A DNA stretch of 64,000 bases, from IMG/VR virus record IMGVR_UViG_3300042923_000275, positions 4,059-68,058 of that record; one strand, written 5' to 3'. The notes beneath the pieces were generated by a model. The model searched no databases. It was given only the letters and a program-made list of their open reading frames with translations, and had not been told where the DNA came from. Below are positions 1 to 64,000 of this stretch, one piece after another. Positions within the stretch are counted from its first letter, which is position 1. Every line of letters begins with the position of its first letter. The stretch comes from a virus. The position numbers and the translations under genes were made by a program.

Positions 1-217
1 ATATCCACACAAATCGCTCCTAAACCTAAACAAACACCTACCACGCTGGTCTCTATCTGATATTTTCTGCATACATGTCGGACATGTAATCTGACCTCTG
101 TGGACGAACCACCCACGGTATAACCTATATACCTCGAATGGCTCATCACCAGTAATTACGACATTCGGTCTGTTACCACACCTATAGCACGCCATCGGTG
201 GTCTGAACCCATCTACT

Positions 218-466
218 TCAGTAATCGTGGTCCTTCTCCTCACGTGGCATCAATCTCCTCCTATTTGGGTTGAAATCGATTGTTATGATCCCGGACTCAA
301 ACAAGCGATTAATAAATTCTCTAGTCTCATTCGGGTTGAAAGTAATATTACAGCAACCACGGGACCTTATTGTCATCTCTCCGCGCTCCGTTATCTCGAT
401 GCGCTTTGAGTCACACCTACCTAGTATGTCATTCACTTCAAATTGGAATATACCACCGTACATCAC
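218..466 (-). CDS. hypothetical protein
   Basis: 82-aa ORF; its ATG overlaps the upstream stop (ATGA) and it follows a GGAGG SD. Confidence 0.6.
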   Translation of the reverse strand: MMYGGIFQFEVNDILGRCDSKRIEITERGEMTIRSRGCCNITFNPNETREFINRLFESGIITIDFNPNRRRLMPREEKDHDY

Positions 467-1104
467 TCATCCTCCGAATCATAGGCCTCATTACCACTCT
501 TCCCATTGGTGGCTACGACATGTTGGGCTATCTTATATAATTCCTTACGCTCGATCGTATAGCCATACCCTAGGAATCTGGGATAGCGCACCAGTGAGTT
601 CATTGGGAATATTCCATCCAGATTCAATAGGTTATATACTAAGTATTTATGCTTGATATCATACTGCGTGGTATTGAACATTGTGATCATTATATTGCCA
701 TCGTCGTCGGTCCATATAGCACATTGAGCAACCGTAAAATCGAACGATTCAAGGAGATCACACACAGACTTCTGATTTGGGTTGTCACGTACAATTAACT
801 GTATTGGGGGCAGGTCTGTGACCTCGTATGTAATCGTGGTGAATGCAGTTAATTTACCCGACAGTGGACGTATGATCTCTCTGATATATAGCGACATCCT
901 ACTGCCCGGATCGTTCTTATTACAGATGAAGAACACGTCGATGTCTTTTGGCGTTTTGTTGTTGTCGATAAAATCACGTACCGCCCCACCAGCGATGATA
1001 GCACCATTACCAAGTAGGTGTCTATATTTGAATCTCAGTCCTGTCTCGTTCTCGAATTTTTCAAGTTCCATAGTACGAAAATTACTTGGCATGTCCTTGA
1101 TCAT
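463..1104 (-). CDS. nucleotidyltransferase, CCA-adding/poly(A) polymerase head-domain-like
   Basis: IAGGAVRD...KDIDVF and FDFT motifs; start set at the ATG after GGAGGA. Confidence 0.7.
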   Translation of the reverse strand: MIKDMPSNFRTMELEKFENETGLRFKYRHLLGNGAIIAGGAVRDFIDNNKTPKDIDVFFICNKNDPGSRMSLYIREIIRPLSGKLTAFTTITYEVTDLPPIQLIVRDNPNQKSVCDLLESFDFTVAQCAIWTDDDGNIMITMFNTTQYDIKHKYLVYNLLNLDGIFPMNSLVRYPRFLGYGYTIERKELYKIAQHVVATNGKSGNEAYDSEDE

Positions 1105-1342
1105 GTCTATTCCTCCATCTGGCCTCAATGGCCTTATTTGCCCTATCTGATATGTGGATGCGAATGACAGCCCTGACTTGCCTGAACTTGATTGGGTTTA
1201 TTAGCGGTAATCTATATAATAGATCCTTATGTACCGTGGATTTCCGCAATTTCATCGCTGTTGCTGTGTCTCTGATTGTGTCATGAGTATCTATAATATG
1301 GCGTGCTACGTCCAATACCCTTAACACGATATAGTCTCTCAT
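1082..1342 (-). CDS. spoIIID: SpoIIID-like sporulation transcription regulator (HTH)
   Basis: MRDYI...T(I)R..A....KSTVHKDL..RLP.INP closely follows the B. subtilis SpoIIID pattern. Confidence 0.85.
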   Translation of the reverse strand: MRDYIVLRVLDVARHIIDTHDTIRDTATAMKLRKSTVHKDLLYRLPLINPIKFRQVRAVIRIHISDRANKAIEARWRNRHDQGHAK

Positions 1343-1739
1343 GGTCGAATCCCCCTATTTGTCTCCTACATCGACATAATCCATTAAGATCAGCGCTGAT
1401 ATAAGTGCCGCGACTCCCGAACCGAACGATGTTGACATTACAACGATCGGACATTGTATGCGACTCGCATGATAGGATGTATATAACAATAGGACAGCGG
1501 CGAACATCATGAACAACCCATACTGATTCTTCACGTCATACCTCCTGAAGTAGTGGTCGGGTCCGGCCTTCCGGACCCGCCATGTCAGTCTTCAGCGAAT
1601 TGACTCAGTCTAGGTCAACTTACCAACCGCGAAACCAGCGGCAAAGCCGACAACAGCACCGATAAGGTCAAATGGAATACTAACAATATAATATTCCCCA
1701 ACTTTGATATCAAGAGACATCTGATACCATTTCGTCATT

Positions 1740-1922
1740 TTATGTATCACCTCCCGTCATTTGGAATAGGTTGCAACAACACTCGCCAGATTCTACAAAC
1801 ATAACGCACGGACATGATGTATCGTCCGTCTTCTCTGGTCGGCATGGGCAATAACCATTATTGTTGCGTAGAGCACGTCTGATGGCCTCTACAGTCCTCT
1901 TGTCTGGATTTAACTGAAACAT
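1740..1922 (-). CDS. ferredoxin-thioredoxin reductase catalytic-subunit-like protein
   Basis: LNPD...GYCPC...CPC...GECCCNLF cysteine pattern (CPC/CPC/CxC). Confidence 0.75.
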   Translation of the reverse strand: MFQLNPDKRTVEAIRRALRNNNGYCPCRPEKTDDTSCPCVMFVESGECCCNLFQMTGGDT

Positions 1923-1924
1923 TC

Positions 1925-2236
1925 CTACTGCCTCCAATACTCGCAGTACTCATTTGGTGTGACTATGCGCGTATCTCCTATATGACATAGGTTCTCATCT
2001 CGGTAAGAACAGGTACTACAACATTTTATGATACACAGGGTTGGGTTGCTGTTTGTGAGCATCGACATGGCTATCTCCAGGCCATTATATAGGCCGATTT
2101 GATAGATGTCAGCACTCTCGGAATTTGATACAAGTCCAGCTTGACTATCCCTAAGTACCCTGATGCGCTCAATTACTTGTTGTATCTGTCTGAGTTGTAC
2201 CGCTGGTAGCGATAAATCTACTATATTTGTGCCCAT
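1925..2236 (-). CDS. hypothetical protein (GLYNGLE motif, Cys-rich C-terminus)
   Basis: ORF track; motif shared with 2805..3248. Confidence 0.6.
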   Translation of the reverse strand: MGTNIVDLSLPAVQLRQIQQVIERIRVLRDSQAGLVSNSESADIYQIGLYNGLEIAMSMLTNSNPTLCIIKCCSTCSYRDENLCHIGDTRIVTPNEYCEYWRQ

Positions 2237-2281
2237 TATGTCACCTCAGATATTCGTCGCTGTCCCATATTCTATGTTATT

Positions 2282-2320
2282 GAGAAGGCCACCCCGTCTT
2301 CATCTCAGGGTGGCCTTCTC
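2282..2320. terminator. 13-bp perfect inverted repeat (terminator or processing hairpin)
   Basis: GAGAAGGCCACCC...GGGTGGCCTTCTC in an intergenic gap; no clear U-tract. Confidence 0.45.
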
Positions 2321-2367
2321 TACATGATCAAAGGAGGTGCACCACCTTGCCTAAGGGTAGGGCCTGA

Positions 2368-2646
2368 TTATTTCGCTTCTTCTGCGGCCTCTTTCACGAC
2401 AGTGGGCTTAGGAGCCGGATACTGCACGAGATCAATCGATTGGATGTCGTTAATAGCGGTTTCAGCATCCAGGGAGCCGTTGGCTACACGCAACATGGTT
2501 TCAGCTACCATAGCGGTGACCTGGGTGTTATCGATGTTCTCAGCGGCAAATTCAACTACTTTGGCTTGCTCAACCTTCGCATTGGCGGCATAATAGGCTA
2601 CAGTGTTAATATGTTTCTTGATTTTGGCGGTCAATTTGATAGACAT
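2368..2646 (-). CDS. hypothetical protein
   Basis: 92-aa ORF with a strong GGAGGT SD. Confidence 0.7.
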   Translation of the reverse strand: MSIKLTAKIKKHINTVAYYAANAKVEQAKVVEFAAENIDNTQVTAMVAETMLRVANGSLDAETAINDIQSIDLVQYPAPKPTVVKEAAEEAK

Positions 2647-2804
2647 TTTGATATCTACCTCCGTTAATTATGTACTAGGCGGCGGCACGCTTACTTACCT
2701 GACAGCCGAGAGGCGAACCCGGCAATGATATCAGCGCACCGCCATTCCTGCACTCATAATATTGCACGGTGGGGGCTGTCTACTAAACAGCCATTGGCGA
2801 TTCG

Positions 2805-3248
2805 CTACCGCATCAATTCGTACGATTTACGGCTCTCGTCTAATTCCTCTTCCGAGAGTTCTGATGTCTCCGATGTCGATGTTCTGGCACGACATTCACG
2901 ACATATGATCGATTCCACTGGCCCGTGCTCATCTTCCATCAGTTCTGACTTCATATGACGTACTAATGTCCCACATTCAGCGCATGCGATATCTACAATC
3001 TCGTCGCATTCAACTGGTATCTGTGGTACATCATTCAAAACTTCAACCTTATTGTTTGCTGTCGCTTGCATAAATCGTGGCTTACGATCGAACAGCACGG
3101 CGCACGCTAGTTCTAATCCATTATATAGCCCGATGTTGTACACATCCATACCATCGCCTTTATCGGCAGGTTCAGCCTGTGATGCCTTTAGACCTGATAC
3201 CCTGCAGATTCTCCGCTCAAGTTCTCTCATACTAACTTTCTTTTTCAT
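2805..3248 (-). CDS. hypothetical protein with GLYNGLE motif and CxxC-CxxC zinc ribbon
   Basis: CAEC...CREC; AGGAGG SD. Confidence 0.65.
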   Translation of the reverse strand: MKKKVSMRELERRICRVSGLKASQAEPADKGDGMDVYNIGLYNGLELACAVLFDRKPRFMQATANNKVEVLNDVPQIPVECDEIVDIACAECGTLVRHMKSELMEDEHGPVESIICRECRARTSTSETSELSEEELDESRKSYELMR

Positions 3249-3574
3249 CTATTGCCCTCCTGTCTCTGTTCGGTATATGTCTCTCAATGATGCACCTTGG
3301 ATAATCACGATAGAAATCTTCCTTATTATCGTATCCATGTTCCGCGATGTGCGGATAGGTCATGGTACCGACCGATCTACCACAACACCCACATATCTCG
3401 CGCCTACTGAGTTCACCGGATATCGCCATCATAGATGTATATCTATTGTTTACCATGCTCGATATTATCTGGGTGGAGACATATGATCTATCTGATACTC
3501 TGGTCATAATAAAATCATGGCCACGTAACCCCAGAATACGATCACGGATATTATGACAAATAGACACCCCTGGT

Positions 3575-4540
3575 TCATGCCGCGTCACGCACGATGGAAT
3601 ATGCCAAATCCAGCATATCAGCACCACTAATGATCGATTCGAACTTACGTTCATAGGTACGATTCGTGACAGTAGTAGTAGGACCGAATGGACGGTGATC
3701 GGAGAAATCTGCAACAGCATTGATAATACCCCACGCACTACCACGGAGATTACTTAAGTCCGGTCTAGTGTTATACACTTCCTTCAGTAGTGCACGTGAT
3801 TCCTCTACCATCTTGATTCTGATATCTGAGAATTCAGGCTTGATCGGCATCAACTGCGCGATAAAGTTATCTAACCACGTCGGTTGAATCTTCATCATCG
3901 CCAACTTGTCCGCTTCGGCACGCAGGTGATCCATATACGTATCATACATGGCTAACGTACGTCTCGCCTCATCCATCTTACCCTTGATATCTCCGGTGTG
4001 TGTGGTAGACCACATCCTGTCGGCACTTCTGATAGCCATGTTAAGAGTATTATTGCACACTACACGGATCGGGGTTATGAATGCCTTTGCAGAACTCTTA
4101 CCGTCATGACTGTTGGTGAATACTAGGTACGGCTGTATACTATCACCAACGATGATACGTTCCGGCATCCTGGCTAGTAACCATACGGTACGACCACCAT
4201 TTAGGCTTCCGGCTGTCTCGTACGTGATCTCACCACTGCCCATTCCTAGTAATGCATCAGTGAAATCAAATGCATCGGTATTTTGAATGATCTTATATTG
4301 TTTCGACACGATACCGAACACGGCATTGTCTGTGTTACGGGTGTTCGCCAGATACCCAGGGATTTCTTCATATTGTCTCTCGATTCCGCAATATAGATGT
4401 ATGGGCTTCTGCTCCACCATCCAATCTAAACCAGCATTATGTAATGCCTCTTCAGATGTCGGCGCGGAGTCGACACTCACGCCAAGACCATGCCATGGAA
4501 CTTCTCTAACATAGAACATTGTCTCAACATTAGCCGCCAT
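3575..4540 (-). CDS. DUF932-family (phage/plasmid-like, TIGR03299-type) protein
   Basis: MAANVETMFYVREVPWHGLG, YETAGSL..G, NSHDG, TPIRVVCNNTL motifs. Confidence 0.85.
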   Translation of the reverse strand: MAANVETMFYVREVPWHGLGVSVDSAPTSEEALHNAGLDWMVEQKPIHLYCGIERQYEEIPGYLANTRNTDNAVFGIVSKQYKIIQNTDAFDFTDALLGMGSGEITYETAGSLNGGRTVWLLARMPERIIVGDSIQPYLVFTNSHDGKSSAKAFITPIRVVCNNTLNMAIRSADRMWSTTHTGDIKGKMDEARRTLAMYDTYMDHLRAEADKLAMMKIQPTWLDNFIAQLMPIKPEFSDIRIKMVEESRALLKEVYNTRPDLSNLRGSAWGIINAVADFSDHRPFGPTTTVTNRTYERKFESIISGADMLDLAYSIVRDAA

Positions 4541-32321: not shown

Positions 32322-32354
32322 GACCCCAAGGTTCTATTCGCCTTGGGGTTTTTT
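32322..32354 (+). terminator. intrinsic terminator of the late operon
   Basis: ACCCCAAGG/CCTTGGGGT stem followed by a T-run, at a convergent junction. Confidence 0.75.
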
Positions 32355-32849
32355 CATATTCGTTAGCTTCTCAAATTTCTTGCCTACCCTACTCATTATG
32401 TTATTTACTCTACCATGGTGGATACCTAGCATGTCGGCGACATCTCTATATGAGAATGCTTTATCTTTAATTAATAGGAATACCTCCTTCTCTCGTGGTG
32501 ATAACACTGCTAAATATTCCTTTATTATCTCATTGTCCTCAGGATCATGGTCATCTCTCCTATGTAGAAAGTCGCACGAGCATCCAAATATCCTACTCAT
32601 CATGTCTGGTTCCATCAGAATTTCGCGTTGTTCTGTGGCCCATTTGGTAACTTTATGTATTCTATCTGGATATTTCCTTTGCTCTATATATCGTATGATG
32701 AAGCCAATATCTTGAAGCATTGTATTAATATGGCATAGGTCGTAATTTTCTTCAGGTGATCGTCGGTTCTCCGGTATTCCCTGTATTCGATCTCTGGCTG
32801 CCTCGACTATTCTATGCGTTCTTCTGTACTGACGTAGTAATTCTTTCAT
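32334..32849 (-). CDS. Xpf-like phage sigma factor / late positive regulator
   Basis: MKELL.QYRRT N-terminus and LSPREKEVFLL....FSY..VA.MLG region 4, as in PBSX Xpf. Confidence 0.75.
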   Translation of the reverse strand: MKELLRQYRRTHRIVEAARDRIQGIPENRRSPEENYDLCHINTMLQDIGFIIRYIEQRKYPDRIHKVTKWATEQREILMEPDMMSRIFGCSCDFLHRRDDHDPEDNEIIKEYLAVLSPREKEVFLLIKDKAFSYRDVADMLGIHHGRVNNIMSRVGKKFEKLTNMKKPQGE

Positions 32850-33085: not shown

Positions 33086-35662
33086 TCACCATCCATACGA
33101 TATTTTATTGGTTCCTATAAATGCTTCCACGGCTGACACAAACGATGTTGTTACCGATATCATACATTGTGTCATTATCTCTACTTCCTCCTCTCCTGTG
33201 TGTACCAATATGTTCACTACTGTATTTCCTGTGCTACATTCACATTCGTGTTTGAGTGCGGCCAATGTCATCAGGTGTGGTGTTAATCCTAGATCGATCA
33301 ATACGGATCTACAGTATACGTTATTTCTTTCTATCACGGCTATGTCAGACATTACCAATCCCGTTTTACCCATATATTCGTTATACCTTCCTTTAATTAC
33401 CACCATCTTTCCTTCTGCGTTCTTAATGATGCTATCGTACTGCCTAAATACGTCGCTAAACACGGTGCAATCGAAGCTAGTGTTCTCTGATTCTACGGTA
33501 ATGAACGCCATCTGTCCTTTCTTCGACTGTTGTACACGTACCGTTTTTAGGATGCCAGCGATGCCCTTATCGTAATCGCCGAATTGATCGAATCGAGTAG
33601 TCGCGCCGAATCTACGAATATGTTCATCGGCTGTACTGAATGGCGTGCCGGATACATAGAAATTCAATAACTCTTTCTCGTGTTGGATCTTGTCCTCTTG
33701 ACACATAGGTTTGATGATATCTGGTTGTATATACTTCTTATTATATCTCGATTCCAACTCATCTATGAGGTATGCTCTATCATCAAATATGTCAAATGCC
33801 CCAGATAATATTAGTGTCTTCTTCGCCGCTGAGTTACACTCCTTGGGAGCCATACGGTCGCAAAAATCCTCGAAACTCCTAAAGTAGCCACTCGCATTTC
33901 TTTCCTTAATAATTGCCTGTACCGTCTTTCCGCCTATGCCCTTGATACCAGTGAGACCAAACCGCACTGCGAAGTTATCAACCTGGAACCCAGTATAACT
34001 GTAGTTTATATGTGGCGGTAATAGTGGTATTCCCAATGATTTGATCTCGCCTATCACGTTTGCCAGTTTATCATTTGTGTCTAAGAATGAGTTCGCCTCG
34101 GCGGACATATATTCCATTGGATAATAACACTTCAGATATGCGGTACGATATGTAATGAGTGCATATGCCGTACTATGTGATTTGTTGAAGCCGTATCGTG
34201 CGAATGTCTCTATCTGGTGCGCTACGTCCTCCACGATCGACTTATCGTATCTCTTCTCAATAGCCCTATCTATGAATTTCCCTTTCTCCTTTGCCATTAG
34301 ATCCTTGTCTTTTTTACCCATTGCCTTTCTCAGTTTGTCTGCTTCTGCGGCTGAATATCCAGCCATCACCATCGATATTCTCATGACCTGTTCCTGATAT
34401 AGTATTACTCCCCATGTGGGTTTCAATATTAGCTCCAGATCAGGATGTTGGTAAGTAACCACCTCACGGCCTAACTTGCGGTCGATATATATCTTATCCA
34501 TCTTCGCATCTAATGGGCCGGGACGATATAGAGCCAATAATGCAATTATATCATTGAATGATGATATGTGCATCCTCTTTACTACCGATGTGATACCCTG
34601 ACCCTCTAATTGAAATACCGATCTGGTCTTACCATTTCTAAGCATCTTATATACGTTAGGATCTTCTAGATTTATATCCTGTATAGTGAAATTTGGTTCA
34701 TGTTTCCTTATTGTCTTGACAGTCTCTGCTATTACTGATAGTGTACGCAAACCTAGTATGTCCATTTTTAGTAATCCAGCTTCTTCTGCATCATGTTTGT
34801 CTAGCTGAACAGTCATATGTGATGAGTCTACTTCTGCGGCATCTTTCTTTCCTTTGGCGAACAACGGTACCAGAGTAGCCACTGGGACATCGCAGATTAT
34901 GACACCTGCGGCATGCTTCGATTCATTACGGTGCAATCCCTCTAGTTTCAGACATGTTTCCCAGAATCTTGGGTAACGCGAATTGATGTTGTCTACCAAT
35001 TTACGGAAATCTGCGTATTGCTCGTAGATATCGGTGATAGTGGTATCGTCATCCTCCTCCTCTTCATTAGGAGTGACATCCTTTATGCGGTTTACTTCAT
35101 CCCACCCTATCTTCATTACTTTTCCGACGTTCTCTAGCAATGAATTGCGTTTCAGAGTACCGTATGTCATAATCTGTGCCACGTAATCAGAACCATATCT
35201 CTGGATTATGTAATCGACTACTTCTCCTCTGCGGTACTGACAGAAGTCAATATCAACATCAGGCATCTCTGGGCGCTCAGGATTCAGAAAACGCTCGAAG
35301 ATCAGGTCATATTCTAGAGGGTCAAATTCCGTTATTCCTAAACAGTATGCCACCACCGCACCGCCAGCAGAGCCACGTCCAGGACCGACTGGTATATCAC
35401 GGAGCCTAGCGGCATTGATCAGGTCCCATACGATCAGAAAATACGAACTGAAGCCCATGTCGTCTATGACTTTTAGCTCGTAGTCTATCTTATCTCTTAG
35501 TTGGGTAGTTATTGTACCATATAATCTTGATGCCCCCTTGTATGTGAGGTATCTTAGATAATTCGTCGGATTGTGCATACTTCCCATATCACCAGTAGGT
35601 ACTTGAGAGATGTTACAACACACATCCTTGGCGTCCTGTTGTTGTAAGTATGTCTCACTCAT
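33086..35662 (-). CDS. dnaE: DNA polymerase III alpha (DnaE), catalytic/C-terminal part
   Basis: GPGRGSAGG, FERFLNPER..MPDVDIDF, KMDILGL, YQEQVM, FNKSH, OB fold. Confidence 0.92.
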   Translation of the reverse strand: MSETYLQQQDAKDVCCNISQVPTGDMGSMHNPTNYLRYLTYKGASRLYGTITTQLRDKIDYELKVIDDMGFSSYFLIVWDLINAARLRDIPVGPGRGSAGGAVVAYCLGITEFDPLEYDLIFERFLNPERPEMPDVDIDFCQYRRGEVVDYIIQRYGSDYVAQIMTYGTLKRNSLLENVGKVMKIGWDEVNRIKDVTPNEEEEDDDTTITDIYEQYADFRKLVDNINSRYPRFWETCLKLEGLHRNESKHAAGVIICDVPVATLVPLFAKGKKDAAEVDSSHMTVQLDKHDAEEAGLLKMDILGLRTLSVIAETVKTIRKHEPNFTIQDINLEDPNVYKMLRNGKTRSVFQLEGQGITSVVKRMHISSFNDIIALLALYRPGPLDAKMDKIYIDRKLGREVVTYQHPDLELILKPTWGVILYQEQVMRISMVMAGYSAAEADKLRKAMGKKDKDLMAKEKGKFIDRAIEKRYDKSIVEDVAHQIETFARYGFNKSHSTAYALITYRTAYLKCYYPMEYMSAEANSFLDTNDKLANVIGEIKSLGIPLLPPHINYSYTGFQVDNFAVRFGLTGIKGIGGKTVQAIIKERNASGYFRSFEDFCDRMAPKECNSAAKKTLILSGAFDIFDDRAYLIDELESRYNKKYIQPDIIKPMCQEDKIQHEKELLNFYVSGTPFSTADEHIRRFGATTRFDQFGDYDKGIAGILKTVRVQQSKKGQMAFITVESENTSFDCTVFSDVFRQYDSIIKNAEGKMVVIKGRYNEYMGKTGLVMSDIAVIERNNVYCRSVLIDLGLTPHLMTLAALKHECECSTGNTVVNILVHTGEEEVEIMTQCMISVTTSFVSAVEAFIGTNKISYGW

Positions 35663-36582
35663 ATTGCCGCTCCGTTCCGCTGGTTGATTAGCCAAGCGTT
35701 GAAATCATTATCGTCCGTCGGTATCTGGAATTTAGGTAGTCTGATGTTTCCGTATTCTATTATATCGTCATCGCAACTGTCGACTATATGCTGAGTATTC
35801 GATAAATATTCCGGTTTGTAAATCATAGACATTTCCTCTGTGGTTAATAGATGGTAATTCGTACCATCAAACTTGAATTTCCGTGGGTCTACCAGATTCT
35901 GACCTGTACCGATACACAATGCTACATCGTGAGCAAATGCATCCTCAGCGTTCAGGTAGTGAGAATCCTGTGTCGCAATGATTGGTATACCATAGTGCTT
36001 AGAGAAATATTCATATATGTCAGATACCATTTTCTCCTGTGGTAGGTCGTGATTCTGCACCTCTAGGTAGAAATCACTACCAAATCTCGATGCATATTTC
36101 TCTATAACCGCCTTACATCCATCTATATCCTCTTTGAATATAAGATTCGCAAATTTACTACCTATACATGCCGTGGTTACTATGATGTTATTACCGTCCA
36201 TTCCGAATAGTAACTCTTCGTCTATGCGCGGCTTGTAGTAAAATCCCTCTTTGAATCCTAATGAACACATCTTAATTAGTTGCTCATATCCCCTACGATT
36301 CTTGGCAAGAACTATCAGGTGATGATATACTGATTCACCCTTCTTCGATGTCTTATCGCTCATACTAATCGGTGCCACATAGAACTCACAGCCGATAATA
36401 TGTTTGATACCAGCTTCTCTACATTCCTTATTAACCTTCACTAGAGAATACATGTTACCATGTTCGGTTACAGCTACTGCTTTGTGCCCTATAGATTTGA
36501 GTTTATTTACCATTTCCTCTACCTTTATTGCTCCATCGAGCAGACTGTAGGTAGTATGTACGTGCAAATGCGAAAAATTCAT
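35659..36582 (-). CDS. dnaE: DnaE N-terminal PHP domain encoded as a separate ORF
   Basis: HLHVHT.YSLLDG, TEHG, GCE, KPRID, DSHY. Confidence 0.9.
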   Translation of the reverse strand: MNFSHLHVHTTYSLLDGAIKVEEMVNKLKSIGHKAVAVTEHGNMYSLVKVNKECREAGIKHIIGCEFYVAPISMSDKTSKKGESVYHHLIVLAKNRRGYEQLIKMCSLGFKEGFYYKPRIDEELLFGMDGNNIIVTTACIGSKFANLIFKEDIDGCKAVIEKYASRFGSDFYLEVQNHDLPQEKMVSDIYEYFSKHYGIPIIATQDSHYLNAEDAFAHDVALCIGTGQNLVDPRKFKFDGTNYHLLTTEEMSMIYKPEYLSNTQHIVDSCDDDIIEYGNIRLPKFQIPTDDNDFNAWLINQRNGAAI

Positions 36583-36660: not shown

Positions 36661-37236
36661 TTATTTACCCGACGAACCAAATCCGGTGTCACCACGTTCC
36701 GATTTACTCAGTTCATCTACCTCTTCGATTGGCGGTACACATCTGAAATGAAATATCACTTGCGCGTATCTCTCTCCTGCGATAATCCGTATAGGGACCT
36801 CACCGAGGTTAATCATAACGGCCTTCAGTTCACCACGGTATCCGGTATCGATCGTACCAGTAACGACGTGGAATTTCGGCATGTTTGATTCATCGTTGGC
36901 AAATTTCCTCAGGCGTAGTTTCAGTTTCTCCCATAGGCTATATCGGTTGATCATCGCCCTTAATTCATTATCTTCCCATCTAGATGCACTCGATCTACCC
37001 TCTATAGTAGCCCACAGGTGTTCAGGTATTTCTAATGAGATACCGGTCGATACAGTGCGTCTCTCACCCGGCATTATGATCATATCTTCGGTACACGGTA
37101 GATCGTATCCTACGTCACCGTCTTTCTTGATCTTGATCAGATCATATATTTTGGCCTTCTCGTCCCTCTTCACCTTTACTGGCTTTGCGTTTACTAGCTG
37201 ATACAATGCCTGTATCATTAGTGAGGAATTATCCAT
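36661..37236 (-). CDS. dut: trimeric dUTPase with an insertion
   Basis: GYDL, GRSS, GTIDTGYRGE, ERYAQ, RGDTGFGSSG. Confidence 0.9.
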   Translation of the reverse strand: MDNSSLMIQALYQLVNAKPVKVKRDEKAKIYDLIKIKKDGDVGYDLPCTEDMIIMPGERRTVSTGISLEIPEHLWATIEGRSSASRWEDNELRAMINRYSLWEKLKLRLRKFANDESNMPKFHVVTGTIDTGYRGELKAVMINLGEVPIRIIAGERYAQVIFHFRCVPPIEEVDELSKSERGDTGFGSSGK

Positions 37237-49783: not shown

Positions 49784-50860
49784 TTACGGTAATTCTACCT
49801 TATATTGACGGAGATCAACGATCTCGCTATGTTTGGGTCCAGTACCAATCATAGTTACTGGCACGCCGCTTTCGTCTTCGACTTTTTTAATGAAGTGTTT
49901 TGTTTCCTGAGATAACAAGTTGTAGTCGGTGACACCATAATCGCGGTAATTGATATAATTCACGAAATTCATTGCGATCTGTGTCGGCCTGTTGATCATT
50001 ACCATATATTGTAATCGATCGAAGTCGAATTCGAAAATTCTGCGTACCTTCTGAGTGACAGTAGTCCTCTCCAATAATGGTTTCGGTGAGCCTGACATCG
50101 CAGTAATTTCACCCCATGTGAGTTCTTTGCCACCCATCGGACCGGACCATCCGATCTGTTCGCCACGTTCATTGAATTGATTGCCGACGCGGATTGGATG
50201 ACACCTCATTACGGCAATTACGTGATCGATAGCCTGAATTGGAACGCCGCAATCTGCTACAACCTGACCAACATGTGTCTGTCGAGATGTCGTGTACGGA
50301 TATGCCATTCCGTAATTGATATCGAGGTCAAAACCCTGTGACCCCTCGATCATTACCATGTGATTTTGTTCGATATGGTTATTGATCTCATACTCAGTAT
50401 CAGACAAATACAGACGCAATGATTCGACATCGCGTGCAAGCATTACATTTCCCCCACGCATGATTTTGTCGGCTTGTGCCGCACCGCAGCCCTTTTGAGT
50501 CGAAGAAATATGACCAAGTGCTTCCGCTTCGATTTTCTTGTGTTTATCATTGATAATCATAGCACGAGGGTGAATATGTAGCCTGTGACCGCACAAGAAT
50601 TCACTGAGTTCGCGCTCAAGAATACTCAGTGTAATACCAGCGCCTGGACCGATGAACAATTCTGTACGTCCATTCACTACTGCCTGTGGGATTTGCTGTA
50701 CCATAAATGGTTTTCCTTCATCGCTCACCCATGTATGACCAGCATTGGTATAGAAGTTACAGATGGCGGCATCATAGTTATCCTTGATCGCCATATATCC
50801 GACAAATTTGCCTTTGCCCTCGGACCCTGCCTGACCACCAAATAATACATTAGTTGACAA
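49784..50860 (-). CDS. purZ: PurZ-type 2-aminoadenylosuccinate synthetase (PurA family)
   Basis: GSEGKG (Ser at the PurA catalytic Asp), NAGHT, PIRVGN, TTVT..RR, NFVN in place of TKLD; TTG start after GGAGGT. Confidence 0.75.
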   Translation of the reverse strand: MSTNVLFGGQAGSEGKGKFVGYMAIKDNYDAAICNFYTNAGHTWVSDEGKPFMVQQIPQAVVNGRTELFIGPGAGITLSILERELSEFLCGHRLHIHPRAMIINDKHKKIEAEALGHISSTQKGCGAAQADKIMRGGNVMLARDVESLRLYLSDTEYEINNHIEQNHMVMIEGSQGFDLDINYGMAYPYTTSRQTHVGQVVADCGVPIQAIDHVIAVMRCHPIRVGNQFNERGEQIGWSGPMGGKELTWGEITAMSGSPKPLLERTTVTQKVRRIFEFDFDRLQYMVMINRPTQIAMNFVNYINYRDYGVTDYNLLSQETKHFIKKVEDESGVPVTMIGTGPKHSEIVDLRQYKVELP

Positions 50861-50909
50861 TGGAACAACCTCCAATATTCTGAATTTCCTGCGATTATTA
50901 TATCGTCTG

Positions 50910-58094: not shown

Positions 58095-58124
58095 GTAAAT
58101 ACCCTCCTTTATCTCTGCGGCCTT

Positions 58125-58178
58125 CGGCTCATCAGTACGGACTCTATCCGTAGACCGGACTCAGGTCCGGTTTCGCCG
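58125..58178 (-). ncRNA. type II hammerhead ribozyme
   Basis: CGGC-GAAA-CCGGAC..GTCCGG-TC-TACGGA..TCCGTA-CTGATGA-GCCG. Confidence 0.92.
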
Positions 58179-58695: not shown

Positions 58696-59066
58696 TCCTT
58701 CGACTCCTTTACTTTAATTAGATATTTACGTGCCTCGCGTAACTTGTATGCCATGTCTAGATCGCGTCCACGTCCGTTGATTAGTTCGGTATCCGTGTAT
58801 CTTTTATATCTCTTGATTATCGAGTTTATCTCGTGGTCTATTGATTTGATCGCGAAATCTAGAAATGATATTGTGGTACTCTCGTATACGTACTTACTTC
58901 TGCTAGTGTTTATTGCTAGCATCACCGCGCTCTTGAACAGCATAAGTTGTGATTTCTCGTTGTCATCTTCGGATTCATCGATAGTCGCTATAATTACCTC
59001 TACAGCACTTAAGATATCCTTCATTTGGTTGTCTTCTAAATAAGGCATTCTCCCCATCGTTACCAA
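58692..59066 (-). CDS. hypothetical protein
   Basis: ORF track; GAGGAG SD; exact start uncertain. Confidence 0.6.
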   Translation of the reverse strand: MVTMGRMPYLEDNQMKDILSAVEVIIATIDESEDDNEKSQLMLFKSAVMLAINTSRSKYVYESTTISFLDFAIKSIDHEINSIIKRYKRYTDTELINGRGRDLDMAYKLREARKYLIKVKESKE

Positions 59067-59085
59067 CTCCTCTATTTCTAATATC

Positions 59086-59138
59086 GGCTCATCAGCACTG
59101 GTTTACCAGTGGACGTGGACCGGAGTCCACGTTTCGCC
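59086..59138 (-). ncRNA. type II hammerhead ribozyme
   Basis: GGC-GAAA-CGTGGAC..GTCCACG-TC-CACTGG..CCAGTG-CTGATGA-GCC. Confidence 0.92.
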
Positions 59139-59140
59139 AT

Positions 59141-59632
59141 CTATGCTCTGATCAGTTCGAGCCGTGTGCGTGATATCAGCTCTAATACCTGCATAAGTGG
59201 ATAGTCCTCATCTACATTCCCGGTCTTACGACCCTCGATATTCCTGGCTAAGCCGTCTAATTGGAGTACGGAATCAATGCCGACGCCGAGGTCTATGTCC
59301 TGGGATGTTACGGTGCTTATTAGCCATTGTAGAGCTGCAATAATACGTGGTGTGTTTCCCTCGTCGTCGATTATATCTCCTATGTCATAATCCCTGTAGT
59401 CCGAGACCATTTCATTTAGCCAGTCTTGCAGTACAGTGACGGAATTCTCATATTCCCAATACGCATCCGGCTTGGTTATGATGTTTAGAGCATCGCATAG
59501 TGCCTCCTGCCTAGATATCAATCCCTCTAATTCGTATCCATCTTCCGATGCCTCTTTACCCATCTCCTCTATATCTCGGTCAACATCCTCTTGTAACCCA
59601 CGTAATTCCCTTAAGTAGTCTAATGTGTTCAT
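59141..59632 (-). CDS. acidic hypothetical protein
   Basis: AGGAGGT SD; D/E-rich. Confidence 0.7.
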   Translation of the reverse strand: MNTLDYLRELRGLQEDVDRDIEEMGKEASEDGYELEGLISRQEALCDALNIITKPDAYWEYENSVTVLQDWLNEMVSDYRDYDIGDIIDDEGNTPRIIAALQWLISTVTSQDIDLGVGIDSVLQLDGLARNIEGRKTGNVDEDYPLMQVLELISRTRLELIRA

Positions 59633-59661
59633 TTCATTACCTCCTATTTCCCTGCGGCTTC

Positions 59662-59717
59662 AGGCTCGTCAGTGCGGACACTATCCGCAGACCGGACCTT
59701 GTGATCCGGTTTCGCCT
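59662..59717 (-). ncRNA. type II hammerhead ribozyme
   Basis: AGGC-GAAA-CCGGA..TCCGG-TC-TGCGGA..TCCGCA-CTGACGA-GCCT. Confidence 0.92.
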
Positions 59718-60076
59718 TACTTGATTGGCGGTACGTACCGCTCATTGCGGTGACCACAATCTGGGCACATCAGCTGTGCGAACACTCCCTTCTCTACGCC
59801 TACCACCTGATATCTTACTATACCACACATCGTGCAGTTTGGCGGTTGATACCTCTCCAGTATTACCTCATCTATGTTGTATTTCGAGTATGTCACTACC
59901 AAGATATCGCCATTCGGCATCTCGGCTCTGTGATCGTCGACCCATTTTCCTTTGTTGTCCATAACGTACCGCTTCGCCACGGCTATCACGGCCTCGCGCA
60001 CGTCGTTCAAGCTGATTGTTTCCCCACGCCTAGAGCATGTACGGTGGAGGATTGCACGCCATCTCGAAGCTGTCAT
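59717..60076 (-). CDS. hypothetical protein with C-terminal zinc ribbon
   Basis: CTMC...CPDC; GGAGGG SD. Confidence 0.65.
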   Translation of the reverse strand: MTASRWRAILHRTCSRRGETISLNDVREAVIAVAKRYVMDNKGKWVDDHRAEMPNGDILVVTYSKYNIDEVILERYQPPNCTMCGIVRYQVVGVEKGVFAQLMCPDCGHRNERYVPPIK

Positions 60077-60157
60077 AGTATTTTCCCTCCGATATATTTG
60101 ATAACTAGCCTAACCGATCTCCAAGCCAATCTAGCCGCTAGGTTCTGTCTGAGCATG

Positions 60158-60664
60158 TTACCTATCCTCCTCCACAATCTGAGATGCCGCCTTAAAGCTA
60201 TGTTCCATGGCTATGTAGGAATGGTGGATTACTGCATCTGTATGCTTTAACTTCTCTGTGATTAAGCTAGCCACCAGAGCGGCGGCGATGTGTGCGGATA
60301 CGGCGTGACGATGTGCAGTTGCCGCATCAAGGTGAGCCTCAGCCACTAGATAGGCCCCAGCTACCAAATCGCTGTTAGCCTTAGCCGCATCGCTGGCATT
60401 CCAGGCATGTCTGTTGGCCTCGAAGTAGTTGTTTTCCTCTGCGGCCTTAACTGCATCTGCTTGATCGCGTTCAGCTTGCTCGAATGGATGCTCGGTATTC
60501 CTGTCCCGTCTCATTTCCCTCCTGTATCTGAGACCATTGGAGTCTCGATCACCATGTTTCCCCTGGCACGTGGTGAAGGCCATATTGGTGGTGTTACCTC
60601 GCCACCCATGGAGGCCGGACCGAGATAGTCCTGCACCCATGGCTGGCGAGGTGGATTGCTCCAC
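60158..60664 (-). CDS. Ala/His-rich helical protein related to the U-free genes
   Basis: TEHPF and DAATAH..A..AH.AAA motifs; start uncertain. Confidence 0.6.
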   Translation of the reverse strand: MEQSTSPAMGAGLSRSGLHGWRGNTTNMAFTTCQGKHGDRDSNGLRYRREMRRDRNTEHPFEQAERDQADAVKAAEENNYFEANRHAWNASDAAKANSDLVAGAYLVAEAHLDAATAHRHAVSAHIAAALVASLITEKLKHTDAVIHHSYIAMEHSFKAASQIVEEDR

Positions 60665-60678
60665 CTCACCTGATTCGC

Positions 60679-61227
60679 TTATTCCTTTGAGGCTTGGTCG
60701 GCTTTGAACTTGGCTAGCAACTCGGCGGCGAGAGCGGCATCTGCTTCCTTGGCTAGGCGTATCTCGGCGCGTTTGTCTTTCCTCTTCTCAGCGCGCTTGG
60801 CATTGCGGATCTTCTTCTGACACTCCTCGCATCTGGTGACCTGGAAGGAGTCTTGGATTTTGACCGTTCTGGTGGTTCCGCAATCCTGGCAGGTAATCTC
60901 GGTGGTTTCTCCAACCAGCTTGCGTCCGTTCGGTAGGATTGTCACCTTGGTCTCTACGGTTGGCTTGGTGAGCTTGCGATGTAGTTTGGCGATTGCGGCT
61001 AGATGGGCGATCACGGCATCTGCGTCAAGTACCGGGGCGTCGAGGACGACTGTCATGCTCTCGATTGTCTCTTTGATCTCAGTGATTTGCTCTGCCGTCA
61101 GCGTGTTGGTGTCTACCTCGGTGGTCTCGATGGTTTGGGTCTCGGATTGGTTGTTTTCCTCGGCGATCTTGACGGCTTGGTCGATTTCGGTGGTGGTGAC
61201 TTGGTTGTTCTCGTTGTGCTTTTTCAT
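60679..61227 (-). CDS. zinc-ribbon/coiled-coil hypothetical protein
   Basis: AAAGGAG SD; C.DCG..R..K.QD.FQVTRC..CQ. Confidence 0.75.
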   Translation of the reverse strand: MKKHNENNQVTTTEIDQAVKIAEENNQSETQTIETTEVDTNTLTAEQITEIKETIESMTVVLDAPVLDADAVIAHLAAIAKLHRKLTKPTVETKVTILPNGRKLVGETTEITCQDCGTTRTVKIQDSFQVTRCEECQKKIRNAKRAEKRKDKRAEIRLAKEADAALAAELLAKFKADQASKE

Positions 61228-61471
61228 AGGTGTCTCCTTTCGTCACGCCCGCAATCTTAGTAGATGGCTGGCGTGTTGCACCGATTGTACGGCTGGTGCG
61301 CGCTCTATTCGGTCACGGCGTCTTCGTCGTGCCGCAGGGGCGTCGAACTCGGTTTCCCTTCGTTCGGTGCTCCTGCCGCGCGGCGATGGTTTCCCCGCCG
61401 GGTCTCGTTGGGTCGGTTTCCCTTTAGGTCTCGGTGGGTCCGTTTCCCCTCTCGTCCGTCGCGGGTTCGCT

Positions 61472-61565
61472 TTGGTCCGTTAGCTCTTTAGTCCTTTAGT
61501 AGACGAAAGCCTTTGGTCCTTTTGAGTGTTAGTCCTTTAGTCGCATGAAGGGTTTAGTCCTTTAG
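61472..61565. repeat. 12-bp direct repeats (TTAGTCCTTTAG) with a 41-bp period
   Basis: Exact copies at 61488, 61529 and 61554; variants at 61472 and 61513. Confidence 0.8.
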
Positions 61566-61634
61566 CGAGTGAAAGGGCAGGTTCCCGGTCTGCTGTTGTC
61601 TGCTCGGCCCTGTTGGGCTTGGCGTGGTGCTGTT

Positions 61635-61691
61635 GGCCCTGTCGGGTCGCGCGGGCGTCGGGCCTGTCTCCCGGCGTCCGCGCCGCCCGGC
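61635..61691. repeat. GC hairpin repeat, copy 1
   Basis: Arms identical to 62813..62867; loop differs. Confidence 0.85.
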
Positions 61692-61725
61692 TGGGTGGCG
61701 GCGGGGTGGGTCTTCTCGCGTCCCG

Positions 61726-62736
61726 CTACTCGGTGGCGCGTCGGGCGTGGTCTGCGGCTTGGCGGGCGTGGTCGGCTGTCCTCCTTCCTCTCTCCTCGGC
61801 GTCGTGCCCGTCGTCGGTGGTCTCGCGTGCGTGGGCCTGTGCTCTGGCGGCCTCGGCGTGGGCGCGTGCGGCGTGGATGTGTGCTCGGCGTGTCTTGGCC
61901 TCCTCGGCGGCCTCGCTGGCCCTCTCTGCCGCCGCGCTGGCTTGGTCGGCGGCCTCGCTGGTGGCCTCGCCTCCGTCCCTGCCGCCCGCCTCCTGCTCGG
62001 CTTGGGCCTCGGTGGCGGCCCGGTTGGCGGCGTGGTGTGCGGCGGTGGCGGCCTCCTCGGCTGTGTCCTCGCTCTCGTCCCGCTCGGCGTCGTCGGTCCG
62101 CTCGGCGTCGGCTCGTCCTGCGGCGGTCTCGTGCGCGTGGGCGGCCCGTCTGCTGGCCTCGGCGGCCTCGTCCCGTGTCGCGTCGCTGGCGGCCTGTGCG
62201 GCCCTGCGTGCTCGGCGGTCCGGGTTGGCCTCGTCGGCGTTGTCGCTGGCGGCCTGTGCGGCTCCGGTGGCGGCCTCCTCGGCTGTCCGGGCGGCGTCCC
62301 GTGCGGCGTCTGCCTCGGTGGTCGCCTCCTCGGCCTCGTCGGCGGCCTCCTCGGCCCGGCGGGTGGCGTGGCTGGCGGCCTGGGCGGCCCGGTGTGCGCT
62401 GGCGGCGGCCCGGTGTGCGTGGGCCGCCCACCCGTCGCTGGCGGCGGCCTCGGCCTCGCTGGCGGCCTCGTGGGCCTCGGCGGCGGCCTCGTGGGCGCGG
62501 TTGGCGGCCCTGTGGGCGCTGGCTGTGTCCGGGTGCTCGGCGTCGCCGTGTGCGCGTGCGGCCTCGGCGTGTCGGGTGGCGGCGGTGCGGTGTGCCGTGG
62601 CGGCCTCCTCGTGTGCTCCTCGGCTGGTGTCGGCGGCCTCGTGGGCCTCGCGTGCGGCCTCGCTGGCCTGTCTCGCCGCCTCGGTGGCGGCTGTGGCCCC
62701 GTGGCTGGCTCTCTCGGCTGTCTGTGCGTGTGTCGT
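61726..62736 (-). CDS. nearly U-free Ala/Glu/Arg/His-rich protein (336 aa, putative ACG start; not in track)
   Basis: GAGAGGAG SD, 9 nt, then ACG ACA; GCC/GAG-periodic frame; only T-containing codons are TGG, ATC and the TAG stop. Confidence 0.7.
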   Translation of the reverse strand, partial: TTHAQTAERASHGATAATEAARQASEAAREAHEAADTSRGAHEEAATAHRTAATRHAEAARAHGDAEHPDTASAHRAANRAHEAAAEAHEAASEAEAAASDGWAAHAHRAAASAHRAAQAASHATRRAEEAADEAEEATTEADAARDAARTAEEAATGAAQAASDNADEANPDRRARRAAQAASDATRDEAAEASRRAAHAHETAAGRADAERTDDAERDESEDTAEEAATAAHHAANRAATEAQAEQEAGGRDGGEATSEAADQASAAAERASEAAEEAKTRRAHIHAARAHAEAARAQAHARETTDDGHDAEERGRRTADHARQAADHARRATE

Positions 62737-62812
62737 GGCGTCCCTCTCCTCTCGCGCCGTCCGGTGTCCCCGGCTCGGCGGCGCGCCTTGGCTGTGGCGG
62801 CGCGCTGGCCCC

Positions 62813-62867
62813 GGCCCTGTCGGGTCGCGCGGGCGTCGGGGTGGTCCCGGCGTCCGCGCCGCCCGGC
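62813..62867. repeat. GC hairpin repeat, copy 2
   Basis: GGCCCTGTCGGGTCGCGCGGGCGTCGGG-loop-CCCGGCGTCCGCGCCGCCCGGC. Confidence 0.85.
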
Positions 62868-62892
62868 GGCGGCTCGGTGGTGTGGCGGCCCG

Positions 62893-63609
62893 CTACCGCG
62901 CCCCGGCGCGGGCGGCGGCCCTCTGTGCGCGGGCGGCGGCGCGGTGGGCGTCGGCGGCCTCGGCGTGGGCTGTCGCGGCGTCCTCCTCGGCGGCCTCGTC
63001 TGCGGCCTCGCTGGTGGCCTGTGCGGCGCGGCTGGCGTCCTGCGCGGTCCGCCCTGCCTCCTCGGCGGCCTCGGCGGCCCGCTCGGCGGCGGCCTGTGCG
63101 GCGTCCTCCCTGCCCTCGGCGCGGGCGCGGGCGGCGTCGCTGGCGGCGGCCTCGGCTCTGTCTGCGGCGTCCTCGGCGGCGCGGCGGGCGGTCTGTGCGG
63201 CGTCGAACGGGTGTTCGGTGGCGCGGGCGGCTCGCTCGGCCTCCTCGGCGGCGCGGGTGGCCTGGGTCTCGGCGGCCTCGGCGTGTCCTGCGGCGGCCTC
63301 GGCGTCCTCCGCGCTGGTCGCTCTGGCGGCCTCGGCGGCGGTCTCTCTGGCGGCGGCGGCGGCCTGTGCGGCCCTCTGTGCGCGGGCGGCCCCTGCGCTG
63401 GTGGGTGCGGCCTCGGCGGCTTGGGCCGCGCGCTGGCTGGCGGCCTCTGCCCTGTCTGCGGCCTCGGCGGCGTCCTTCGCGGCTCCGGTCCTGCGGGCAT
63501 CCTCGGCTGGCTGGCTGGCCTCGCGGGCCGCCCGGTCGGCTGTGGCGCGGGCCTCTCTGGCCTCGGCTCTGCGCTGGGCGGCGGTGGGGCGGCTGTCGGT
63601 CTGTGTCAC
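62893..63609 (-). CDS. nearly U-free Ala/Glu/Arg-rich protein (238 aa, GTG start)
   Basis: GAGAGGAG SD, 9 nt, then GTG ACA; T only in GTG, one GAT, TTC (HPF) and TAG. Confidence 0.75.
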   Translation of the reverse strand: MTQTDSRPTAAQRRAEAREARATADRAAREASQPAEDARRTGAAKDAAEAADRAEAASQRAAQAAEAAPTSAGAARAQRAAQAAAAARETAAEAARATSAEDAEAAAGHAEAAETQATRAAEEAERAARATEHPFDAAQTARRAAEDAADRAEAAASDAARARAEGREDAAQAAAERAAEAAEEAGRTAQDASRAAQATSEAADEAAEEDAATAHAEAADAHRAAARAQRAAARAGAR

Positions 63610-63890
63610 GGTGGTGTGCTCCTCTCGTCGGCGTCCGCTGTCTGCGGCTCGTCGTGCCCGGCTTGCTGGCGCGCCGGGCGGCGCGTGGGCTGTGTGCGTG
63701 TCCGGTGGACCTCCTGTGGCGGCCCTCGTGGCTGGCCTCCCGGCGGCCTCGGCGGCTGGCCCGCGTGCGTTAGCCCGTCGGCGGCCTCTGTGGGCCTCTC
63801 CGGGCCTCCCGTGCGCTCCCGTGGCCTGTCGCCCTGCCGGGCGGGTGTCTGCCGGGCTGGCGGCCCGGCGGGGCGCGCGGCCCCACCACC

Positions 63891-63919
63891 AGCACAACAC
63901 AGCCGCGCGCCCGTGTCAA
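63891..63919 (-). promoter_or_regulatory. candidate early promoter: TTGACA-17 nt-TGTGCT
   Basis: Perfect -35 at 63919-63914; non-consensus -10 preceded by TGTG; lies just upstream of the A-free segment. Confidence 0.45.
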
Positions 63920-64000
63920 GGGCCGTGGCGGGCCGTCCTGGGCTGTGGCGGGCGGTGGGACGCAGGGGCGTTCGCCGCGCTCCACGGACCTCCGCCGCGC

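Follow-up and report, generated by a model that had tools for sequence, protein, structure and literature searches.

Z-genome phages, in which 2-aminoadenine (Z) stands for adenine (A), include S-2L, phiVC8/VP5, the SH-Ab 15497-like phages, and PurZ0 Wayne and Ghobes. Here we analyze a phage represented by a single 68,058-nucleotide (nt) contig, the virus record IMGVR_UViG_3300042923_000275. The last 64,000 nt of this contig are referred to as the window, and all positions are those of the window unless a contig position is given. Near the right end of the window lies a 2.3-kb block (61580-63884), called the island, whose + strand is almost devoid of A. The phage has in common with the known Z-genome phages a PurZ-type synthetase with a diagnostic Ser. 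We propose that the island, at the head of a leftward (minus-strand) operon, could be a Z-free template for the first operon of the phage, a reading to which we give just under an even chance.

A Dut-like enzyme is present both in the PurZ0 phages, according to PMC12884076, and in this phage. The replication genes set the phage apart, as its polymerase is of the DnaE type and split from the PHP domain rather than being DpoZ, and neither DatZ nor MazZ was found among the proteins scanned. Most PurZ phages have been described with the family A polymerase DpoZ. Unlike this phage, VP5, Wayne, JeffCo, Kokobel2, vB_BpsS-140 and five IMG/VR genomes have no base-free strand.

Other parallels come from phages that express a leading region first. 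The left end of phage T7 carries the host-polymerase promoters A1-A3 and the first gene, 0.3/Ocr, and avoids restriction sites. The present locus resembles it in one or more putative host-type promoters that lie a few hundred nt inside what may be a genome end and read inward, in a small first product predicted to be acidic and helical, and in leading DNA that appears to be shaped by avoiding something on which the host acts. It differs in what is avoided, restriction sites in T7 but a single base of one strand here, in that gene A of the island has no similarity to Ocr, and in that the genome end here is a possible one. The first-step-transfer (pre-early) region of T5 is a discrete, first-expressed block in a terminal repeat, and the island stands at about twice the depth of its flanks; however, no T5 homologs are present here, the repeat status would follow from contig depth, and the T5 region is not base-purged.

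Messages that are likewise written without a nucleotide or a motif, at a cost in codon choice, are also known: ACA-less mRNAs survive MazF, and G-less cassettes are used for in vitro transcription. These are engineered or concern a 3-nt motif, whereas the island is natural and lacks a whole base throughout 2.3 kb, non-coding DNA included. Closest to it appear to be the leading regions of T7 and T5, which are poor in motifs, and the engineered motif-free messages, none of which amounts to a whole base on one strand. An earlier note on this DNA had known of no described equivalent, and searches of the literature on Z phages and on adenine-free phage DNA likewise turned up neither a base-free strand nor a modification-free early block. 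The first reading of a Z-T-G-C genome by a host polymerase was not found addressed there.

The purged block and the level of the constraint

The + strand of the island (2305 nt) holds 983 G, 852 C, 460 T and 10 A, the latter at positions 61728, 61877, 62430, 62895, 63206, 63207, 63499, 63608, 63709 and 63772. With A and T taken as equally likely, the binomial probability of 10 or fewer A is 4.4e-122. In 500-nt bins of the + strand, the counts of A are 1, 1 and 3 inside the block versus 94-199 in the bins up to window 60500. The G+C content is 80%, compared with ~45% in the remainder of the window. RNA read from this template, that is, minus-strand RNA, is predicted to be almost free of U. The A of the sense strand is lowered too (19% vs ~30%). 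This exact count agrees with the earlier note, which had reported only 10 A on the + strand with T still common, and its list of what the retained A serve (two TAG stops, a GTG start, TTC, TGG, ATC and GAT codons) is correct. The note had also named AGGAGGT as the Shine-Dalgarno (SD) sequence. This motif is indeed present at 63709, but it lies 100 nt upstream of the GTG, and the working SD would be GAGGAG.

The two edges of the block differ in kind. On the right the onset is razor sharp, with 8 A in 63885-63901 and only 2 A in the adjoining 275 nt inside the block. The left edge is a gradient of about 1.2 kb, along which the A of the + strand falls from ~20% near 60000 to 4-11% at 61100-61500.

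Since no stop or canonical start codon is possible on a U-free strand, open frames in the island prove nothing by themselves. The one frame that holds genes A and B (Table 1) nevertheless shows a pronounced codon structure. In this frame, G makes up 0.59-0.67 of codon position 1, C makes up 0.46-0.53 of position 2 and 0.56-0.61 of position 3, and the period-3 Fourier peaks of A and B reach 69-76 times the mean. The repeats within both genes are spaced mostly at multiples of 3 nt and often at 21 nt, the length of a heptad, and a ~75-nt element follows each of the two TAG stops. The predicted product of gene A is rich in Ala, Glu, Arg and Asp. Both products are predicted to be acidic (isoelectric points of 5.0 for A and 5.3 for B), built on Ala, Glu, Arg, Asp and Thr with very little Pro or Gly. 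An AlphaFold model of the gene A product from the single sequence consists of four long helices with a mean predicted local distance difference test score (pLDDT) of 87. The coding RNA of A and B is less folded than shuffled versions of it (z +1.8 to +5.6 in six of seven 300-nt windows).

Gene A matched no Pfam or PHROG family, found no homolog in a single-protein scan of IMG/VR, and matched no fold in PDB or BFVD at E <= 0.001. A search of 1.84 billion representatives returned 0 homologs, for which the filtering of biased composition by HMMER is a possible cause. For gene A as a putative protein-coding gene, an SD, a GTG start, a TAG stop, strong period 3 and a confident helical model are set against 0 homologs. 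The use of stop codons in the genome is ordinary (TAA 42, TAG 25 and TGA 22 among 89 greedily chosen open reading frames) and no tRNA genes were found in it; therefore there is no sign of TAG recoding. The 5' region of gene B aligns with that of gene A at 74% column identity, SD included. The paralogy of A and B is read from this DNA alignment and from the repeat families, while a composition-adjusted BLASTP comparison of the two proteins gave E 17, that is, no similarity. A 168-aa protein encoded downstream was also considered as a paralog of B and is unsupported (E 3 in the same kind of comparison).

The constraint acts on the nucleic acid, because U is gone from synonymous sites and from spacers and because the next gene is partly purged. 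None of the 353 four-fold codons of A and B has a final T, whereas 62 have a final A; of the 97 two-fold Y-ending codons, just 1 ends in T. The leader, the spacer, the tail and a second A-free stretch outside the window are purged despite weak or no codon periodicity. In the next gene downstream, U at third positions (U3) is 0.07, compared with 0.15-0.32 in 21 other minus-strand genes measured further downstream, although the hydrophobic residues of the encoded protein are retained, with U at 0.22 of second positions. The earlier note had likewise placed the constraint on nucleic acid and not only on protein.

Z deaminates directly to G. The purge might thus be a mutational footprint, in which strand-biased deamination of Z to G, either spontaneous or enzymatic, would have struck one exposed strand and the present frames would be the survivors. 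The second A-free stretch has the look expected of such a process, as it resembles ordinary phage DNA with every T turned to C and its best frame is rich in Pro (31 of 145). Changing every T to C in an ordinary gene would be expected to yield Pro-rich products. Genes A and B, however, avoid Pro, which accounts for 4 of 238 residues (1.7%) in A and 13 of 388 (3.4%) in the whole open frame after the stop of A, comprising gene B and the spacer. They also keep their SD, start, stops and periodicity, and their mRNA is less folded than shuffles. Selection is also indicated by the abrupt start at a promoter-like site and by the gradient at third positions of the next gene; moreover, transcription would expose the non-template strand, yet it is that strand which keeps its A. 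The avoidance of Pro had been taken in the earlier note as a mark of selection, and with the preserved periodicity and signals it disposes of blind A-to-G (sense T-to-C) hypermutation of A and B. We consider the mutational explanation as a whole very unlikely.

Onset of the purge, the contig junction and read depth

The purge begins 7 nt past a promoter-like site, TTGACA-17-TGTGCT, and the predicted start near 63884 is the first purged base. TTGACA occurs once in the 3,231-nt GC-rich region to which the island belongs. By the criteria for sigma-70/sigma-A promoters, the -35 element matches at 6/6 positions, the spacer is 17 nt long, a TG motif is present, and the second hexamer matches at 3/6 positions and contains no A. 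TGTGCT resembles TATAAT with every A replaced, and the non-template strand carries no A in the 20 nt upstream of the predicted start. The site may nevertheless act as a promoter.

The position of the onset also bears on an explanation at the level of RNA. A U-free, GC-rich message could escape a U-dependent ribonuclease, such as RNase E/Y-type decay by the host, a toxin or Cas13-like nuclease, or a shut-off nuclease of the phage, and could escape intrinsic termination as well; the link to PurZ would then be coincidental. The extent of the purge coincides exactly with the stretch presumed to be transcribed, whether coding or not. Intrinsic terminators need a U tract, and window 60000-64000 contains 1 terminator-like site against 5.7 expected from shuffles, with none on the minus strand. 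Selection on RNA would leave unexplained why the -10 and discriminator, which are not transcribed, are A-free on the non-template strand, why the A of the sense strand is lowered, and why the island is found in a phage with PurZ, when PurZ-like genes occur in just 209 of 50,697 phage records. No nuclease that could play this part was identified. We regard this explanation as unlikely, though it merits some weight.

The contig ends in an identical 127-nt overlap, which means that the assembly was cut there and that the map is circular or terminally redundant. The GC-rich region crosses this junction. To the right of the island comes a control region that contains A and spans the junction, and then the second A-free stretch. 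The sense strand of this stretch is made up of C 44%, A 29% and G 26%. Upstream of it are a minus-strand ATG (contig 767-765) and a canonical-looking promoter site, TATACA-17-TATAAT (contig 917-889).

An assembly chimera or a sequencing artefact would have to be considered for a segment at a contig end whose G+C content is 35 points off that of the rest of the genome, and the earlier note had named a chimeric join as a result that would overturn its claim. Besides the circular overlap, assemblies of three sequencing runs (X1, X2 and X3) bear on this. They are soil-metagenome runs from three samples and three studies, in which 98-100% of sampled words of window 59000-64000 are present; all three may be sources of the record and so fall short of full independence. 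One contig of X1 (67,920 nt) spans 59000-64000 with 0 differences. In X2, a 34,216-nt contig covers 59000-62475 and crosses the left edge, and a 9,809-nt contig begins at 62884 and extends 8.7 kb beyond the end of the window, both with 0 differences. A 33,429-nt contig of X3 also crosses the left edge with 0 differences. Because contigs of three runs bridge the edges, a chimeric join is excluded, and we give an artefact of any kind a negligible chance.

Two of these runs show a raised depth over the island. The k-mer depth of the contigs covering the island (61683-63970) is 1.6-2.0 times that of the flanking 33-34-kb contigs in X2 and X3, with values of 730-838 versus 465 in X2 and 1709-2037 versus 1020 in X3; these are per-contig means obtained from contigs only, and a library or coverage bias could give the same excess. 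Such a depth is what a collapsed terminal repeat gives. The island might therefore be a structure at the level of DNA, namely a direct terminal repeat and/or a packaging or replication control region of a linear genome, in which the strand asymmetry would help in the processing of ends, in recombination or at an origin and the frames would be secondary. Repeat clusters that are unique in the genome mark both edges and are in line with this view. The core 9-mer of the TTT[A/G]GTCC[T/G]TT repeats on the left has a single further occurrence in the genome, in inverted orientation at contig 323-331, where the second A-free stretch has its edge, and GGTTTCC repeats lie between the island and the next gene. 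Both families may represent iterons, operators or packaging sites. At contig 301-312 stands a second copy of the GCTGTGTTGTG core. A DNA-level structure, however, does not predict an in-frame synonymous purge, periodicities of 3 and 21 nt or the third-position purge of the next gene, and we find it rather improbable as the primary explanation. A terminal repeat as such is compatible with the island being a Z-free template. In T5 and T7, the first-expressed genes lie in or next to terminal repeats. An R-loop origin was set aside because the RNA would be C-rich, not G-rich. Rfam gave no match in the island or in contig 1-4500.

PurZ hallmarks and a proposed Z-free template

The PurZ-like protein matches PHROG 1211 (E 2e-66), and its nearest named relative is that of Bacillus phage vB_BpsS-140 with 49% identity. 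The 209 matching phage records, all below 60% identity, include the Z-phage groups of Arthrobacter, Vibrio and Acinetobacter. Its P-loop motif is to be compared with GDEGKG in archaeal PurA (5k7x and 2d7u) and with GSTGKG in phiVC8 PurZ (6tnh, the same protein as 6fm1). The exchange of Asp for Ser is reported for all 147 sequences of the phage PurZ group in PMC12884076, which also reports dutZ, encoding a Dut-like dATP/dGTP hydrolase, in all 98 PurZ0 genomes. The Dut-like protein of this phage is 39% identical to the Dut domain of vB_BpsS-140 and is a candidate DutZ. Because of the PurZ with the diagnostic Asp-to-Ser exchange and the Dut-like enzyme, the A of the phage is probably Z, and we find it quite likely that the virion DNA carries Z for A. 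Short-read assemblies read Z as A.

On this basis, a mechanism may be proposed for the island. If the A of the virion is replaced by Z, the + strand of the island would be a template with neither A nor Z for 2.3 kb from ~63884. The -10-like element and the 20 nt before the start would be Z-free on the non-template strand, which sigma reads in single-stranded form. The -35 element could stay a perfect TTGACA since it would be read via the major groove. Z carries its extra amino group in the minor groove, and its major groove looks like that of A. With a Z-free template and a Z-free -10, full-speed first transcripts would be possible, made by the host polymerase from the incoming Z-DNA; their timing is presumed to be early. 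The polymerase would not stall, and there would be no trigger for transcription-coupled repair. This repair acts on the template strand only, which would fit the strand-specific purge of a heavily transcribed first operon. The cost would be a 12-amino-acid, U-free code for two acidic, all-helical proteins of Ala, Glu and Arg, and the following gene would be freed of U wherever its protein permits.

We favor this mechanism because of the purge and its strand, the selection at the nucleotide level, the gradient in the next gene, the sharp onset at a promoter-like site, the codon structure and the PurZ hallmark, together with the reported cost of Z in transcription. According to PMC10786293, Z-substituted coding regions gave 35-85% less protein in an Escherichia coli cell-free system with T7 polymerase and 12-19-fold less in human cells; the same paper cites Tan et al. 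2022, according to which one Z can block T7 RNA polymerase and Pol II by up to 92%. Transcription-coupled repair is mentioned in PMC12944874 as one possible cause of poor transformation by Z-DNA.

Several observations weigh against a Z-free template. The published costs of Z in transcription concern T7 and human polymerases, not bacterial ones, and elsewhere in the genome transcription has to proceed on Z templates all the same. Sigma-70-type promoters require an A at position 2 of the -10, which the -10-like hexamer does not have; for this reason a consensus scan listed no minus-strand promoter at 63891-63919. The second A-free stretch has no codon periodicity and starts 117 nt after the predicted start of the site at contig 917-889, not at it. 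Gene B has no canonical start codon: an ACG stands exactly at the position of the GTG of gene A, and B would therefore either start at a U-free non-canonical codon, be read through from A, or be untranslated. Concerning the Z chemistry, the synthetase scores 221.8 bits with the NCBIfam PurZ model NF038379, below the cut-off of 300 (the archaeal-type PurA model NF003295 gives 275.9 bits versus a cut-off of 368), and DatZ (HD-type), MazZ and DpoZ are missing from the proteins scanned.

A survey of other PurZ DNA gave further points of this kind. From a PurZ alignment search, 24 IMG/VR, 58 metagenome and 5 genome loci were scanned for base-poor windows of 200-300 nt; the nearest relatives by PurZ, P0002-P0005 (64-86% identity; one of them on a contig of 59.7 kb), lay outside this survey. 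No island was found in the ten complete PurZ phage genomes named at the outset (0/10), whose poorest 300-nt windows still hold 24-71 A or T, or in 82 partial PurZ loci (0/82; 19 IMG/VR, 58 metagenome amounting to 471 kb, and 5 genome loci). Z phages therefore manage, as a rule, without an island. Single-protein scans of IMG/VR with PurZ, the 182-aa neighbour, the ligase and gene A found no relative. A mild T-poor spot in one relative (G005) turned out to be an ordinary strand switch.

The wider statement, that Z-DNA is a real barrier to host transcription or a trigger of repair and that the phage meets it with a Z-proof boot operon combining a Z-free -10 and a Z-free template, is one we hold possible, with doubt outweighing belief. 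If it is true, the island would be the first natural gene block recoded around a virus's own DNA modification, and nature's own test of proteins that lack Leu, Ile, Val, Met, Phe, Tyr, Trp and Cys. A DNA modification could then dictate codon and amino-acid usage, the first reading of a Z-T-G-C genome by a host polymerase would become directly testable with such an operon, and designers of Z-DNA vectors would be offered a rule for expressible cassettes. Whatever the mechanism, A and B would be natural proteins that draw on about 12 amino acids and are encoded without U, and would bear on the folding of proteins with a reduced alphabet.

Feature coordinates and the surrounding genome

Table 1. 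Coordinates of the island, its surroundings and the proposed Z genes (window positions unless stated otherwise).
Feature	Position	Strand	Description
Purged block	61580..63884	-	+ (template) strand with 10 A in 2305 nt; 80% G+C
Promoter-like site	63891..63919	-	found by eye; TTGACA 63919-63914, 17-nt spacer ending TGT, TGTGCT 63896-63891
5' leader of gene A	63610..63884	-	275 nt, 2 U, weak codon periodicity
Gene A (putative)	62893..63609	-	GAGGAG, 9 nt, GTG, 238 codons, TAG
A-B spacer	62749..62892	-	U-free; carries one ~75-nt post-TAG element (62813-62885)
Gene B (putative)	61726..62748	-	340 codons, TAG stop, in frame with A; apparent tandem paralog of A
Tail after gene B	61580..61725	-	146 nt, U-free; second copy of the post-TAG element (61635-61709)
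TTT[A/G]GTCC[T/G]TT direct repeats	61471..61565	+	4-5 copies
GGTTTCC direct repeats	61351..61421	+	three copies between island and next gene; fourth variant, by eye, near 61441
Next gene	60679..61227	-	182 aa, zinc-ribbon-like; partial purge
GC-rich control region, start	63885..64000		~450 nt, A present; runs on into contig 1-333; second GCTGTGTTGTG copy
Second A-free stretch	contig 334-754, outside window		+ strand has 0 A in 421 nt
PurZ-like synthetase	49784..50875	-	GSEGKGK, Ser where PurA has Asp
Dut-like enzyme, candidate DutZ	36661..37236	-	31% to the Dut domain of the Wayne DmtZ-DutZ fusion, E 6e-15

The + strand of the phage carries the genes for TerL, the portal and the major head proteins. 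The replication arm lies on the minus strand and encodes the DnaE-type polymerase with a separate PHP protein, NrdD and its activase, a primase-helicase, a helicase, a UvsX-like recombinase, RNase H, an exonuclease and a ligase. An adenylate-kinase-like protein, the Dut-like protein, ThyX, a DHH phosphoesterase and a sigma-like factor are also encoded on the minus strand. The DnaE polymerase (Pol III alpha) occupies 33086-36582 (-), with the PHP domain as a separate upstream protein, an arrangement unusual for a PurZ phage. The sigma-like factor (32334-32849, -) is encoded at the border to the structural genes; it matches the NCBIfam "positive control sigma-like factor" and PHROG 1190 and is a candidate reader of later promoters on Z-DNA.

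The DHH protein has distant relatives only, at most 46% identical and on short contigs. Its matches in named phages all belong to phages of Bacillota, and for this reason the host is probably a Firmicute. A 68,714-nt contig of Halobacillus seohaensis, which may be a phage or a prophage, contains a PurZ-like frame near its end (45-46% identical, with one in-frame TAA); the contig was scanned whole, and no base-free stretch was seen in it.

The two genes after the island (60158-60664 and 60679-61227, both -) encode an N-terminal motif in common (BLASTP E 3e-4, 34% over 68 aa), beneath which lies a 39-nt DNA repeat (60416-60454 and 61138-61176, 77% identity). Further downstream, three candidate type II hammerhead ribozymes (RF02276) were noted on the minus strand at 59652-59717, 59079-59139 and 58122-58178. 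They score 35.3, 34.4 and 33.0 bits, against a gathering threshold of 37, with E values of 2e-4 to 1e-3; two more sites that had been proposed were not recovered by Rfam at E <= 0.1. In the operon that follows the island, the candidates at 59652-59717 and 59079-59139 sit between small genes.

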